From Nitrospiraceae bacterium (lineage in GTDB: Bacteria; Nitrospirota; Thermodesulfovibrionia; UBA6902), in NCBI GenBank assembly GCA_020346765.1, contig CP070788.1, positions 1,908,783 to 1,963,571 of the forward strand: a DNA stretch of 54,789 bases, written 5' to 3'. Position 1 is the stretch's first letter. Every line of letters begins with the position of its first letter. This document shows, piece after piece, positions 3,412-54,629 of this stretch. Below the pieces are notes generated by a model. That model ran no database searches. It had not been told where the DNA came from and saw only the letters and a program-made list of their open reading frames with translations. Made by a program: the position numbers and the translations under genes.

Positions 3412-4137
3412 ATGAAAGGAATAGCAGGCGCAGCACTGTCTCTGGTTTTTCTGGCTATTGCTGTCAGTCACGCCGGGTATCTGGATGAGCTTTTAAAAAA
3501 AGTGACCCCGATGGCCGAAAGCGAGCTGGATACTGATACGATTATCAAAGGCCTCAAGGAAGCGCTCGCGGTGGGGACGGACAAGGCGGTCACGCAGGTG
3601 TCCCAGGTGGACGGATATTTCGGTAATGAGGCGATAAAAATCCTGATGCCCGAGAAGATGAGCAGCGTGGCCGACATGCTGGCACGGGTGGGCTTTCAGG
3701 AGGAGGTGGACAACTTTGTCATGAGCATGAACCGGGCCGCCGAAAAGGCCGCCCCTGAAGCAGCGGGCCTCTTCACGGACTCAATCAGGCAGATGTCCAT
3801 CAATGACGCGAAGAAGATCCTGAACGGCGGTGACACTGCTGCCACGGATTACTTCAGGGAGAAGACCGGGAAACAGCTCGGAGAAAAATTCAGGCCGCGC
3901 ATTTCTGAAAGCATGAACTCCGTGGGTGTGGCGCGCTATTACAAGGACATGATGGACAAATACTCCCAGATCCCCTTTGCGAAGGACGTGGCCTTTGACC
4001 TCGATGAGTATGTGACAGACAAGTCCGTTGACGGCCTCTTCCACATGGTGGCCCAGGAGGAAAAGAAGATCAGGACAGACCCGGCGGCACGGGTCACGGA
4101 CCTTCTGAAAAAGGTCTTTGAAAAACAGGCTCCCTGA
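3412..4137 (+). CDS. DUF4197 family secreted protein
   Basis: I place the start at the internal ATG (codon 55 of ORF 3250..4137), which is preceded by GGAGGAAAG. A signal peptide [21 protein letters not shown] follows. The body ([17 protein letters not shown]...[15 protein letters not shown]) resembles DUF4197. Confidence 0.65.
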
Positions 4138-13127: not shown

Positions 13128-13188
13128 CTGATATCAGTTGTAAGTTGTTAGTTATCAGTTTTCAGTCTAAAAACTAACAACTAACAGC
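13128..13188 (-). repeat. heptad-periodic hairpin element A in the livF-paaK spacer
   Basis: The mRNA-sense sequence reads GCUGUUA GUUGUUA GUUUUUA GACUGAA AACUGAU AACUAAC AACUUAC AACUGAU AUCAG, then GGGAGGGCAUU-AUG. GUUAGUUGUUAGUU pairs with AACUAACAACUUAC at 13 of 14 positions. Confidence 0.7.
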
Positions 13189-17935: not shown

Positions 17936-18367
17936 TCAGAGGGAGTAAATGTCCTCACCCTTCAGTATGCCGATACCTGCCCTGTTCAGTGCGTCCATGG
18001 CCTTTTCGATTTCGTCAAAGCGGAAGATGATGATCGCCTTGCCGATGCTCTTCTGCACCAGGGCGTACATGTACTCCACATTGATCCCCTCGTTCCTCAT
18101 GGTATTCAGGATCTTCGAGAGTCCGCCCGGCCTGTCCTGGACCTCCACGGCCAGCACCTCCGTCTTTCCCACGGTAAAACCGCTGTCTTTCAGCACCTGC
18201 TTTGCCTTTTCCGTGTCATTCACGATGATGCGGAGGATGCCGAAGTCAGAGGTGTCTGCCAGAGAAAGGGCACGGATGTTGATTCCGGCTGAGGCCAGTA
18301 CGTGGGATACCTCGGCCAGGCGCCCAGATTTGTTCTCCAGAAAAACCGATATCTGTTCAACTTTCAT
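17936..18367 (-). CDS. tandem ACT-domain protein
   Basis: 143 aa with two ACT-like beta-alpha-beta-beta-alpha-beta units ([29 protein letters not shown]; [28 protein letters not shown]). This is the usual companion of paaK/ior genes. Confidence 0.8.
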
Positions 18368-18377
18368 GGAGCGCTCC

Positions 18378-18464
18378 TTTTCAGCTGCAAGCTTTTAGCT
18401 ATAAGCTTTCAGCTACAAAAAAAGATTTATTATGTCGTTTGCTGACAGCTTACAGCCAACAGCG
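18378..18464 (-). repeat. heptad-periodic hairpin element B in the paaK-ACT spacer (homologous to element A)
   Basis: The mRNA-sense sequence reads GCUGUUG GCUGUAA GCUGUCA GC, then a 27-nt loop, then GCUGAAA GCUUAUA GCUAAAA GCUUGCA GCUGAAA AGGAGCGCUCC-AUG. The two heptad blocks are largely complementary. Confidence 0.7.
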
Positions 18465-18474
18465 CATAACTGAT

Positions 18475-19776
18475 TTATATCTTCCTCTTATCAATGACCC
18501 GCTTCGCCTTGCCTTCGCTTCTCTGTATGGTCCTGGGCTCCACGAGCTTGATCCTGCACGAGACCCCCAGGAGGTCTTTAATTTCACGTTCAATGCGCTT
18601 CGAGAGGTTTTCCAGAACCTTGATTTCATCGGAGAATATCTGGTCCATCACTTCCACCTGGACTTCCATAATGTCAAGGGCGCCCTGCCTGTCCACGATG
18701 ATCTGGTAGTGGGGCTCAACCCCTTCTATGCTCATGAGGACATGCTCGATCTGCGATGGAAAGACATTCACTCCGCGGATGATGAGCATGTCATCACTCC
18801 TGCCGGTTATGCGCTGCATCCGGTAAAAGGTCCTCCCGCATGAGCATTGCTCCGTGATGAGCCGTGATATGTCCTTTGTCCTGTACCGCATGACGGGAAA
18901 GGCCTCCTTGGTGAGTGTGGTGAAGACAAGCTCGCCGGTCTGGCCGGGGGGCAGGGACTCACCCGTCTCAGGGTTGATGATTTCGGGAATGAAAAAATCC
19001 TCAAAGACATGGAGTCCGCTTTTTTCCTCGATACATTCACTGGCAACACCGGGGCCCATGACTTCGCTGAGTCCGTAGATGTCAATTGCCTTGATGCCGA
19101 GCTTTTTCTCGATTTCATCCCGCATGTTTTCGCTCCAGGGCTCGGCGCCGAAGAGGCCCACCCGGAGTTTCAGCGTCGCAGGCTCGACGTTCATTTCTCT
19201 CATGACGTCAGCAAGGTTCAGGGCGTAGGAGGGCGTACAGAGGAGAACGGTGGATCCGAAGTCCTGCATGATCATGATCTGACGCTTGGAGTTGCCCCCT
19301 GAAATGGGGATGACGGCGGTGCCCATCTTCTCCGCCCCGTAGTGGGCGCCCAGGCCACCGGTGAAGAGTCCGTAGCCGTAGGCGTTGTGCACCACATCAC
19401 CCTGGTGGGCCCCGCCGCAGGCAAGGGTCCGGGCCATGAGCTCGGCCCATGAGTCGATGTCCTGTTTCGTGTACCCTACGACCGTGGGCTTGCCCGTTGT
19501 TCCTGACGAGGCGTGTATCCTCACGACCTGCTCAAAGGGCACGGCAAAGAGGCCAAAGGGATAGTTGATTCTCAGGTCCTCCTTGGTAGTAAAAGGAATC
19601 CTGGCAAGATCGGACAGGCTTTTCATATCCCGTGGTGACACGCCTGCCTCGTCCATCTTCTTTTGGTAGTAGGGCACAGCGGAGTAGACGCGTTCGACCA
19701 GTCGTTTCAGCCTCTTCAACTGGAGTGCTTCCAGGGCTTCACGGGGAAGGGTTTCGAATTCCTCATTCCATATCAT
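18475..19776 (-). CDS. paaK: phenylacetate-CoA ligase family (aryl-acid CoA ligase), copy 2
   Basis: 433 aa and a clear paralog of 11819..13117 ([37 protein letters not shown]). It overlaps iorB by 4 nt. Confidence 0.85.
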
Positions 19777-31712: not shown

Positions 31713-31794
31713 TGAAGCCAGAGATCAAAAGTGCAGAAGTTCCATCGTTTAATTGTTTGACTTCTTGCTCTGGAGCTATGGAACTATAGAACTT

Positions 31795-33168
31795 TCATTG
31801 CTTCTTGATGAATCTGTTTCTCAGGGTTTTTGCTGCCGTGATGATCCGTACCAGTGCGTCGGTCAGGCTGTGGGGCCTCGGGCGTATTTTGATGGAATCC
31901 AGGTGTTCCATCATTACCCCTGGTTGAATAAAAATCGAGGGTGATTTTGTCGTGGCGAGCACCTGGCTTGGATAGACGCTCCTGTGCCCTGTCATGAGGT
32001 AGCTGACGATGCAGGAAACAGCAGCATACGGCGCTATTTCAGGGCCGAAGAATTCCATGGCCATGATACTTGCAGATATGGGCGTATTGGCAGCGCCTGC
32101 AAGAAGACTCACCATGCCGATGGCAGCAAACATTGAGGGATCGTATCCCAGGACCATGCCTATGAAGCTTCCGGCAGTGACCCCAGTAAAAAATATGGGG
32201 GTTACCACGCCGCCGCTTCCGCAAAATGCCAGAGTGACGGCGGTAAAAAGAATTTTGAAAGCGAAATCGAAAGGCATGACCTTGCTGCCTTCGAGCACGG
32301 ACTCAATGGTCCCGAGCCCCAGGCCGAGGTACTTTGGTGATATAGTGAAGGCTAGCAGTACGAGGAAGGCCCCTCCAATGAGCCCCTTGAGCGGCTCCCA
32401 CAGAGTGATTTTCCTGCTTATGGACTCGGCGAGCTTCAGTGCTTCAATGAGCAGCAACGAGCACAGTCCGAAAAAGACTGCTCCCGTGAGGACCTTGATG
32501 AAAAAGAATTCGCTGAATTTCGGGACGAACTCCACGGTATGATAAAAGTATTCCACCCCCAGGGATGACGATACCTGATGGGCGATGATGCCGGCCACAA
32601 AGGACGGAAACATCACGTCATAGAATATGCTGCCGATGGAGAGGACCTCGATGCCGAATAATGCACCGGCGATGGGCGTCCCGAACACCGAGGCGAACCC
32701 GGCGCTGATGCCGCAGATTACCAGTTTCCTGCGGTCCTTTTTGTTGAAGCGGAACAGGGACGAGAAGATGTATGAAAGGCCCGCGCCGATCTGTGCCGCC
32801 GGCCCTTCTTTCCCCGCAGACCCTCCCGCAGCTATGGTTATTACCGTGGCAGCAAGCTTCACCGGAACGGTAAGGGGATTCATCCTGCCGCTGTACCGGT
32901 GTATGGCGTCTATTACCCTTTCCGTTCCATGACCCCGGGCTTCGGGGCAGAGGTACTTTATGAGAAGGCCGGACAGGAAGAGGGCAAAGGGAAGTGCGAG
33001 GAAGTAGTAGGGGTATTCGGAGATGAAAAATATGCTTGAGTTCAGAATACTGATGAAAAAGGCCGTGGAAGCGCCCACAATGGCTCCCGTGGAGGTCGCG
33101 AGAAAGAACCACTTAACCACACTGATGAAGAGCACTGACTGTTCCAGGAAAAGCTCTTTCTTTCTCAT
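31795..33168 (-). CDS. ClC-family anion channel/antiporter, short form without CBS domains
   Basis: 457 aa and polytopic. ClC motifs are GHGTE (in the GSGIP position), GKEGP and GVVTP (in the GxFxP position). Confidence 0.85.
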   Translation of the reverse strand: MRKKELFLEQSVLFISVVKWFFLATSTGAIVGASTAFFISILNSSIFFISEYPYYFLALPFALFLSGLLIKYLCPEARGHGTERVIDAIHRYSGRMNPLTVPVKLAATVITIAAGGSAGKEGPAAQIGAGLSYIFSSLFRFNKKDRRKLVICGISAGFASVFGTPIAGALFGIEVLSIGSIFYDVMFPSFVAGIIAHQVSSSLGVEYFYHTVEFVPKFSEFFFIKVLTGAVFFGLCSLLLIEALKLAESISRKITLWEPLKGLIGGAFLVLLAFTISPKYLGLGLGTIESVLEGSKVMPFDFAFKILFTAVTLAFCGSGGVVTPIFFTGVTAGSFIGMVLGYDPSMFAAIGMVSLLAGAANTPISASIMAMEFFGPEIAPYAAVSCIVSYLMTGHRSVYPSQVLATTKSPSIFIQPGVMMEHLDSIKIRPRPHSLTDALVRIITAAKTLRNRFIKKQ

Positions 33169-53960: not shown

Positions 53961-54029
53961 GCAGGAGAGGGCCAAAGTGCAGAAATGCCAAAGCACTGAG
54001 GACGTGGGATCAGCGCCTTGACTGTGGAA

Positions 54030-54629
54030 CTACGGCACTACGGTACTAGGGCACTTAATTATCCGCTTATCGGTGATGATGATGTCGACTTTGATATCGT
54101 GGGGCTCGTCGGGGATGTGGTCGCCGATCTGTTCTTCATAGGCGAGGGCGACTGTGGGGATATGGTCGACCCGGGCAAGTTTTTTGGCCTCCAGGCTCAG
54201 CAGCCTGTCATAATAACCGCCGCCATAGCCGAGGCGGCTGCCTCTCAGGTTGAATCCTGTGCCGGGGATAACAACGAGGTCAATATTATTTAAAAATACT
54301 TGCCGGCCCGCTCTAACCCCCGGCTCGGGAATCCCCATATATCCCGGGACAAGCTCCGATATGTCTTTTATCTCGTAGAGGTGCAGGACTTTGCGGCCCG
54401 GATCGACAACAGGCAGGACCAGTCTCTTACCCAGGGCGAGCACATCCTGAAGATAACTTCTGGTATTTACCTCAGAGCGGAATGAGACATACATCAGCAA
54501 ACAGGCCGCTTTTTTGAAGGTCTCAAGGGCAAAGAGCCGCTTTTTGATGGAAGCATCCTTCAGCTTCTTCCTGTCGGGAGGTATGGCGTCCCGCTTTTTC
54601 AGCAGATGTGCCCTGAGCTTCTGTTTCAC
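54030..54629 (-). CDS. 5-formyltetrahydrofolate cyclo-ligase
   Basis: 199 aa with a GTG start. It shows LRAHLLKKRDAI, VLPVV, VVIPGTGFNLRGSRLGYGGGYYDR. Confidence 0.85.
   Translation of the reverse strand: MKQKLRAHLLKKRDAIPPDRKKLKDASIKKRLFALETFKKAACLLMYVSFRSEVNTRSYLQDVLALGKRLVLPVVDPGRKVLHLYEIKDISELVPGYMGIPEPGVRAGRQVFLNNIDLVVIPGTGFNLRGSRLGYGGGYYDRLLSLEAKKLARVDHIPTVALAYEEQIGDHIPDEPHDIKVDIIITDKRIIKCPSTVVP

Follow-up and report, generated by a model that had tools for sequence, protein, structure and literature searches.

Element B, the subject of this analysis, is a heptad-periodic inverted repeat in a 12.6-kb minus-strand operon of a Nitrospiraceae bacterium (Nitrospirota, Thermodesulfovibrionia; assembly GCA_020346765.1). 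The DNA analysed around it, called the window throughout, is a stretch of 54,789 nucleotides (nt) of contig CP070788.1 (positions 1,908,783 to 1,963,571), numbered from its first letter. The nearest relatives of its ACT protein likewise point to the Nitrospirota, class Thermodesulfovibrionia. The source genome is a 2.69-Mb metagenome-assembled genome (MAG) of 53% G+C and 80% completeness, in which 353 contigs are joined by runs of N; its rRNA is unassembled, with 23S rRNA present as an 85-nt fragment only, and it encodes an RNase III gene. Positions elsewhere in this genome are given as G000 coordinates. The operon runs in the order PALP enzyme, amidohydrolase, iorA, iorB, paaK1, a 107-nt spacer, an ACT_8 gene, livK, livHMGF, element A and paaK2, and its features around the two elements are as follows.

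18475 to 19776, minus strand: paaK1, a paaK-like aryl-acid CoA ligase gene, the upstream cistron (Pfam AMP-binding_C_2, 4.3e-37; AMP-binding, 2.5e-14)
18368 to 18474, minus strand: paaK1–ACT spacer, 107 nt, nearly filled by element B
18382 to 18463, minus strand (mRNA sense): element B, two heptad-periodic arms and a loop
18441 to 18463, minus strand: 5' arm of B, GCUGUUG GCUGUAA GCUGUCA GC, unit type nnTnAGC
18414 to 18440, minus strand: loop of B, 27 nt, A/U-rich, AAACGACAUAAUAAAUCUUUUUUUGUA
18382 to 18413, minus strand: 3' arm of B, GCUGAAA GCUUAUA GCUAAAA GCUUGCA GCUG, unit type GCTnAnn, ending 2 nt before the Shine-Dalgarno sequence
18374 to 18379, minus strand: Shine-Dalgarno sequence (SD) AAGGAG of the ACT gene, outside the hairpin; start codon at 18365 to 18367
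17936 to 18367, minus strand: gene of an ACT-domain pair protein, the downstream cistron (Pfam ACT_8, 4.5e-30)
13135 to 13188, minus strand: element A, an AGTT/AACT-type heptad hairpin between livF and paaK2

The element in the paaK1–ACT spacer

The paaK1 stop codon lies 5' of element B, and the spacer mRNA reads AUCAGUUAUGC, then the 5' arm, the 27-nt loop and the 3' arm, followed by AAAAGGAGCGCUCC and AUG, the same letters as given in a preliminary description of this DNA. The two arms, on opposite strands with a spacer between them, comprise 3 and 4.5 to 5 tandem heptads of GCUGnnn/GCUnAnn, so that each holds at least three tandem units of 7 to 8 nt. Pairing by script returned exactly the count previously made by hand, namely 19 Watson-Crick and 2 G-U pairs, with 2 mismatches, in a stretch of 23 positions, and the hairpin does abut the SD as had been described. 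The RNA folds as one long hairpin of -38.9 kcal/mol (z = -3.4), a stability equalled in 1 of 200 shuffles, with AAGGAG just beyond the stem. Element B is a genuine, non-random heptad-periodic inverted repeat.

Searches for known regulatory features at the site were negative. At the gathering threshold, Rfam gave a 6S RNA as its sole match in the whole window and none at element B; a permissive Rfam scan of 18300 to 18550 yielded only miRNA-like hairpin matches at chance level; and a promoter and terminator scan of 18250 to 18600 found none. As a separate observation, the 10 nt that directly precede the start codon of the ACT gene (18368 to 18377) form a perfect palindrome, GGAGCGCUCC, which can pair the GGA of the SD with UCC, as in the minimum-free-energy fold, and a comparable small hairpin, GGGAGAUUUCC, is present in G007, a genome of another genus in the same family.

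Element A, downstream of the liv genes, also folds stably (-32.8 kcal/mol, z = -2.9), and rotating the unit of its 3' arm, AACUGAU, gives TAACTGA. The preliminary description had aligned A with B heptad by heptad and had placed each between a stop codon and the next SD; both statements agree with our results, 24 of 35 positions being identical by script. The likeness that it drew from this holds in part. The two elements share a common design (TnTnAGY and RCTnAnn units) and are not each other's closest relatives: A, with AACTGAT units, and B, with GCTGAnn units, fall in different subfamilies. The top matches of A in the genome are G000 1150424-1150478 (80%) and 1034942-1035024, not B. The top match of B is G000 2564871-2564949, at 71% identity over 79 nt, followed by 2085586-2085678; one arm of the former agrees with B at 21 of 23 positions (counted manually from the alignment), and its loop, an A-run and a T-run, resembles that of B.

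A dispersed class of periodic inverted repeats

Arrays were counted across the genome by lag self-match, at a threshold of at least 70% over three units and with shuffle controls, a census adopted in place of the TRF repeat finder at score 30, which was too noisy inside coding sequence. It returned 174 arrays of period 7 versus 9 in shuffles and 108 of period 8 versus 1; period 9 gave 23 arrays, and periods 10 to 14 gave 0 to 2. For the B-type unit, a search for four tandem AGCTNNN with at most one mismatch gave 30 matches per strand including overlaps, which fall at about 20 loci; the reversed control gave 1. The heptad unit families comprise AGCTnnn (as in B), AGTTnnn/AACTnAn (as in A), CCAGATn, TCAAATn, GGGCnAT, GTCAAAA and CGAAATn; the octad families comprise CGGAAGnn, TTCAAGGn, ACTATGGn and TGGAGnAn.

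The overall density, 282 arrays in 2.66 Mb, leads to an expectation of 1.3 arrays per 12.6-kb operon and 5.8 in the window, where four are listed. The presence of two copies within one operon, which had been taken to argue for a function in differential expression of the cistrons, gives no argument for an operon-specific role at this density. Besides A and B, the window holds two arrays of the same superfamily and the 6S RNA mentioned above.

31756 to 31806, no strand assigned: octad array of the GGAACTAT type
54016 to 54062, no strand assigned: octad array of the GGAACTAC/GGCACTAC type, near the contig end
30615 to 30788, minus strand: 6S RNA (SsrS), Rfam RF00013, 76.2 bits

Paired architecture and placement are equally characteristic of the class. 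Scored by local ungapped comparison, a full-length ungapped search having proved too strict, an inverted partner lies no more than 170 nt to the right of at least 46 arrays, against 0 in reversed-only and complement-only controls. The polarity of the arms is fixed genome-wide, same-family comparisons giving 53 left-left matches versus 1 left-right match. By open reading frame (ORF) calls, 207 of the 282 arrays are non-coding, and among the 170 assignable to a spacer, 111 lie in co-directional, 42 in convergent and 17 in divergent spacers, whereas spacer bases divide into 59% co-directional, 18% convergent and 23% divergent. Set against the base shares, the arrays are thus over-represented in transcribed spacers and depleted from promoter-only ones. 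Within co-directional spacers they are spread from stop codon to start codon, about one fifth adjoining an SD. Element B accordingly belongs to a class of many dispersed, mainly intergenic copies that is rare in divergent spacers.

Hairpins of the B type occur between rplR and rpsE, between nuoD and nuoE, and between genes for dCMP deaminase and an RlpA-like protein, and further ones adjoin a [2Fe-2S] ferredoxin gene, the gene for IPMDH and tilS; the genes flanking these other copies have no tie to ACT domains or aromatic amino acids. Beyond this genome, 59 of the 121 Thermodesulfovibrionia genomes sampled contain AGCT-heptad arrays, with up to 130 hits in a single genome and a patchy distribution by family (33 of 43 genomes in the family of the window, 0 of 10 in another), and the reversed control is near zero in most of the 121. 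In G012, G038 and G004 that control, four tandem TCGAnnn, is itself abundant (12 to 47 hits), which points to a separate TCGA-heptad family.

Residence inside genes and around PF05635 genes

Members of the class also reside in frame within conserved genes. In this genome the octad element CGGAAGnn...nnCTTCCG is found, in frame, at the following places.

G000:C1:1879076-1879158 (L128:1779-1861): carB
G000:C1:1178396-1178468 and 2376316-2376357: two nrdJ-like class II ribonucleotide reductase paralogs
G000:C1:2121738-2121828: purL
G000:C1:1825089-1825170: a radical SAM gene
G000:C1:495417-495512: a MoeA-like gene
G000:C1:1366585-1366622: aspS

These octads add 13 to 30 residues to the encoded proteins, for example SAEVRKRGGAE...GLPxFRSSxL, and a CbiA-like gene and two further genes contain AGC-heptads in frame. 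Because neither 7 nor 8 is a multiple of 3, a stop-free array encodes one and the same short repeated peptide whichever frame is used, which may be a reason why such inserts are tolerated. Octads of the TTCAAGG type show a different relation to genes, overlapping their 3' ends (G000:C1:2623179-2623218; ORF 1824417-1825484), where they supply the last residues (KKGVKDSRGQGVE and KKGSKGSRGQGR, each running into the stop) together with the stop codon.

In carB the 30-residue insert falls at 549|550, residues that are contiguous in the Escherichia coli enzyme (PDB 1BXR), and 14 of 14 related genomes examined carry an insert of 15 to 49 residues at the same point, made of differing palindromic arrays of 7- to 8-nt units. 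The insert region lies between ...YSTYE(K/R)P and ECEA... (L129 to L141); several inserts share a central AAAGACT, different genera have different unit families at the site, and the insert of G012 consists of B-type TCAGC...GCTGA heptads. This point in carB is a hot spot at which arm sequences are replaced or homogenised.

A further association concerns PF05635, a family named after the ORFs of intervening sequences (IVS) in 23S rRNA. The source genome has three such genes.

G000:C1:361361-361675 (L095:1501-1815): PF05635 gene
G000:C1:1486460-1486759 (L096:1501-1800): PF05635 gene
G000:C1:1161930-1162205 (L097:1501-1776): PF05635 gene

All three are bordered by periodic arms on every assessable side. 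One has octad arms, GGATTCAA...TTGAATCC, whose inner junction, CAAGTGA...CACTYGA, is that of gene-less octad hairpins; the others have heptad arms CGAAAT...ATTTCG and an ATTTGA arm with a contig end on the opposite side, and these arm families are likewise found here as gene-less hairpins. In five relatives, periodic arrays lie within 260 nt of 20 of the 23 PF05635 genes, against about 9% expected for a random gene from array density. Three of these loci, L106 (G043), L104 (G025) and L110 (G095), have B-type arms in the polarity of B (nnTCAGC...GCTGAnn) around or beside the gene, so that the arm family and polarity of element B are found enclosing PF05635 genes within its own lineage.

Across the class, 94 of 121 genomes carry PF05635 as a multi-copy family, with up to 15 copies; of 14 control genomes, only 1 has it. 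Genomes with and without AGCT arrays number 57 and 37 among the PF05635-positive and 2 and 25 among the negative (Fisher p = 5e-7, a value overstated because relatives are not independent). As to the AGCT-armed cassette of L104 itself (positions 700-1500; G025:C41), it apparently sits in the middle of a tyrosine-recombinase (integrase-like) gene, with the N-terminal coding part upstream and the C-terminal part (…VQELLGH…TTMIYTHV…) downstream. No periodic-armed intervening sequence lies inside either 23S gene of the closed relative G036, where arrays occur upstream of one of the two.

Orthologous junctions and strand symmetry

Relatives of the ACT protein occur in 563 scanned stretches, most of which lack the element, and a closer comparison covered 15 other operons in which paaK stands beside the ACT gene. 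Eight of them, G013 included, keep the ACT gene with a spacer of only 8 to 22 nt and no element. At most of the orthologous junctions, in other words, the ACT gene stands without the element.

Where an element is present, its state varies widely. G007 has a 108-nt spacer of the same build as B: GCGGTCA/GCTCTCA units form the 5' arm, an A/T loop follows, and the 3' arm consists of five heptads that start with GCTGAAA, as in B, and stop 12 nt short of the ATG. In L006, four heptads run up to AGGAGG; the other cases are G018 (the same as L010) a remnant of about 2.5 heptads, G097 two heptads (AGCTTAC CGCTTAA, then AAGGAG), and L008 a different periodic hairpin at the same junction. A tree of PaaK and ACT proteins places G007 beside the element-free G013 as its sister (support 100/99). 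The simplest reading is that the element at this junction is an old resident, repeatedly trimmed or lost; repeated colonisation of a permissive site is possible; and under either reading element B is dispensable for the operon. The B-like loop of L006 (upstream of position 4001) has a peculiarity of its own in that it contains a nested structured repeat of about 80 nt, the twin hairpins GTCATTCCCG...CGGGAATCC, and similar sequence occurs in the source genome some 100 to 160 nt before the Y1 transposase gene at G000:C1:2238914.

Evidence on the level at which the palindromes are maintained comes from the mismatches and from folding of both strands. In 32 hairpins of clear orientation, mismatches of the G-U type number 72 in the sense and 61 in the antisense RNA; across the arms, each taken with a 7-nt extension, only 66% of the positions are Watson-Crick pairs; and the G007 ortholog folds at -46.6 kcal/mol in sense and -47.9 kcal/mol in antisense. 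These counts and folds show no consistent one-strand selection for RNA structure. The arms also contain perfect internal duplications, GCGGTCAGCTCTCA twice in the 5' arm of G007 and TTCCGGTC and TTACCCGC three times each in carB inserts, which fit turnover by slippage.

Origin and possible effects of element B

Element B is probably a copy, without a gene, of a class of palindromic repeats dispersed through the genome; it looks like a small selfish or neutral element and not like a dedicated switch of its operon. In this class, each arm is a run of 3 to 6 tandem units of 7 or 8 nt; the class occupies transcribed spacers and some reading frames in this genome and in many relatives; and B falls in its 'TCAGC...GCTGA' heptad subfamily. 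The full-length form of the class appears to be a cassette, a small PF05635 four-helix-bundle gene between arms of the same kind, from which we infer the gene-less copies to descend. Element B presumably originated as DNA: an ancestor of the operon would have acquired it by insertion or inheritance, replication slippage would then have reshaped it in 7-nt steps, and most descendants would have lost it, wholly or in part. In the operon mRNA a hairpin of about 30 bp is predicted to separate the stop codon of paaK1 from the SD of the ACT gene, and any influence of this hairpin on expression would be a by-product, exerted either as a barrier to 3' exonucleases, in the manner of repetitive extragenic palindromic (REP) sequences, or as an RNase III substrate, in the manner of rRNA intervening sequences; either effect would shift the ratio of upstream to downstream mRNA. 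A measurable effect of B on expression is conceivable, if on balance doubtful, and an amino-acid-sensing switch linked to the ACT protein is very improbable.

Several observations weigh against this account. The placement statistics rest on our own crude ORF calls. A B-like hairpin stands in the same register beside the SD in three lineages, which could reflect selection and not inheritance, and element B itself folds 11 kcal/mol better in sense (-36.8) than in antisense (-26.0). Its 27-nt loop contains no clear remnant of a PF05635 gene; the loop sequence AAAGAUUUAUUA does resemble the first and last coding words of the cassette, the sequences compared being very short, and AAAGAC/GTCTTT is only weakly enriched in loops, with 7 occurrences in 6 of 45 loops versus 2 expected. 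Furthermore, no transposase or other mobilising enzyme was identified for the class. The RAYT/IS200 Y1 transposases were considered as mobilisers and set aside: the genome has a single PF01797 gene, at a contig end and with no arrays beside it, and the arms are without a GTAG head.

Among familiar repeats, REP sequences and bacterial interspersed mosaic elements (BIME), with their RAYT transposases, are dispersed short palindromes in transcribed spacers that can stabilise upstream mRNA and carry a conserved GTAG head; the arms of B differ in having an internal 7- to 8-nt periodicity and no such head. Rickettsia palindromic elements (RPE) lodge in frame inside conserved genes, and the in-frame sister elements described above behave in the same way, with no sequence relation. 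Cyanobacterial short tandemly repeated repetitive (STRR) heptamers are likewise short heptamer arrays in spacers.

Closer in structure are the paired octa- and heptanucleotide sites of Geobacter metallireducens GS-15, comprising classes 1 to 3 (Gmet_I###) and GGACCGG x4 (Gmet_H4##), which occur as opposite-strand pairs at variable distance in dozens of copies, some in genes, and in several unit families (Aklujkar et al., 2009; PMC2700814). They share with the class of B the four to five tandem 7- to 8-nt units per site and the opposite-strand pairing, and differ in their units (GTTGCTYN, MTYCTGA, GGACCGG) and in that no PF05635 link is reported there. The heptameric repeats GGGAATC of Xanthomonas and GGGGAYT of Nostoc, investigated in a study of G-quadruplexes, each consist of a single G-rich unit; in Xanthomonas they form 70 to 75 convergent (inverted) pairs per genome, mostly in co-directional and more rarely in divergent spacers, and differ between orthologous sites in both length and sequence (Rehm et al., 2015; PMC4692102). 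Inverted intergenic heptamer pairs and the avoidance of divergent spacers are common to these repeats and the class of B, whereas B is A/U-rich, has GCUGA as its core and shares its genome with many other unit families. TAACTGA direct repeats, known from marine Beggiatoaceae, cyanobacteria and Bacteroidetes, lie in spacers, often just before start codons, vary between strains by indels in 7-nt steps and, in Beggiatoaceae, replace the SD, with one indirect repeat among 170 sets (MacGregor, 2015; PMC4679880). The unit of element A matches this type, while B, with GCUGAnn units, an inverted partner and a canonical AAGGAG, does not. Finally, there are ORF-bearing intervening sequences of 23S rRNA, such as that of Coxiella burnetii with S23p, which is described as a selfish element excised by RNase III (PMC4990558); the PF05635 cassettes resemble them in placing a small four-helix-bundle gene inside a long inverted repeat, whereas B has no gene and does not lie in rRNA. 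The kind of element to which B belongs is thus already known and unexplained; the lineage is new for it, a literature search having returned no description of heptamer repeats in Nitrospirae and none linking PF05635 to heptamer repeats, and the PF05635 link and the in-frame hot spots go beyond the literature searched.

Other explanations must be set against this distribution. The view advanced in the preliminary description, that A and B are matched, operon-specific cis-regulatory RNAs serving differential expression of the cistrons, possibly through amino acids sensed by the ACT protein, can point to the position of both between a stop codon and the next SD, to their stable folds, and to the better sense fold of B. 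It is largely refuted by distribution: density alone supplies 1.3 arrays per operon, A and B belong to different subfamilies, and hairpins of the B type stand in ribosomal-protein and nuo operons. The eight orthologous junctions that keep the ACT gene behind a short spacer, the negative terminator, promoter and Rfam searches, and the position of the SD outside the stem all speak against an operon-specific cis-regulatory RNA, and we regard this view as having hardly any probability left. Local origin as a simple-sequence repeat, through slippage of a chance heptamer and inverted duplication, with neither mobility nor a tie to PF05635, would account for the perfect tandem duplications within arms and agrees with the over-representation of heptameric repeats in bacteria, for which polymerase slippage has been suggested (PMC4692102). 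It is nevertheless unlikely in view of the 53-to-1 polarity across dispersed copies, the distant copy that has both the arm and the loop of B, the same arm type around PF05635 genes in relatives, and the single carB site at which unit families differ by genus.

A comparably low probability attaches to the possibility that the arrays are binding sites for abundant proteins acting as global regulators (of the IHF/HU type on DNA, or of the Csp, S1 or CsrA type on RNA), each unit taking up one protomer. Such a role would suit units made of a conserved 4- to 5-nt core and variable linkers and the register beside the SD that B keeps in three lineages; it is also how the Geobacter sites were read, as binding sites of IHF/HU (PMC2700814), and the same proposal exists for TAACTGA repeats (PMC4679880). 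However, at least 12 unrelated unit sequences in one genome would require many proteins, the elements are dispensable at orthologous sites and also lie in frame inside enzymes, and they show no strand bias and avoid promoter-only spacers.

With regard to its meaning, the reading of element B as a gene-less selfish repeat removes a tempting account of this operon, an RNA switch operated by the ACT protein, as unsupported. It also bears on the paired heptamer and octamer arrays of cyanobacteria, Xanthomonas, Geobacter and Beggiatoaceae, a decades-old observation that has lacked an explanation: in this Nitrospirota lineage, fixed polarity, consistent flanking of PF05635 genes and in-frame residence in carB, purL, nrdJ and aspS point to a mobile, IVS-like element over regulator sites. 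For annotation, caution is warranted, as such hairpins lengthen spacers, insert peptides into enzymes and can provide stop codons. A broader hypothesis, which we offer tentatively and at less than even odds, is that the periodic hairpins are the non-autonomous form of an undescribed mobile element whose full form carries the PF05635 (IVS-protein/Avd-like) gene, and which would colonise transcribed spacers and, in frame, essential genes, undergo turnover at hot spots, the carB linker and the paaK–ACT junction among them, and yield transcripts cut by RNase III. If this were true, a cut by RNase III at B would split the ior–paaK part of the message from the ACT–liv transcript, and the long-noted excess of heptameric repeats in bacteria would be accounted for.

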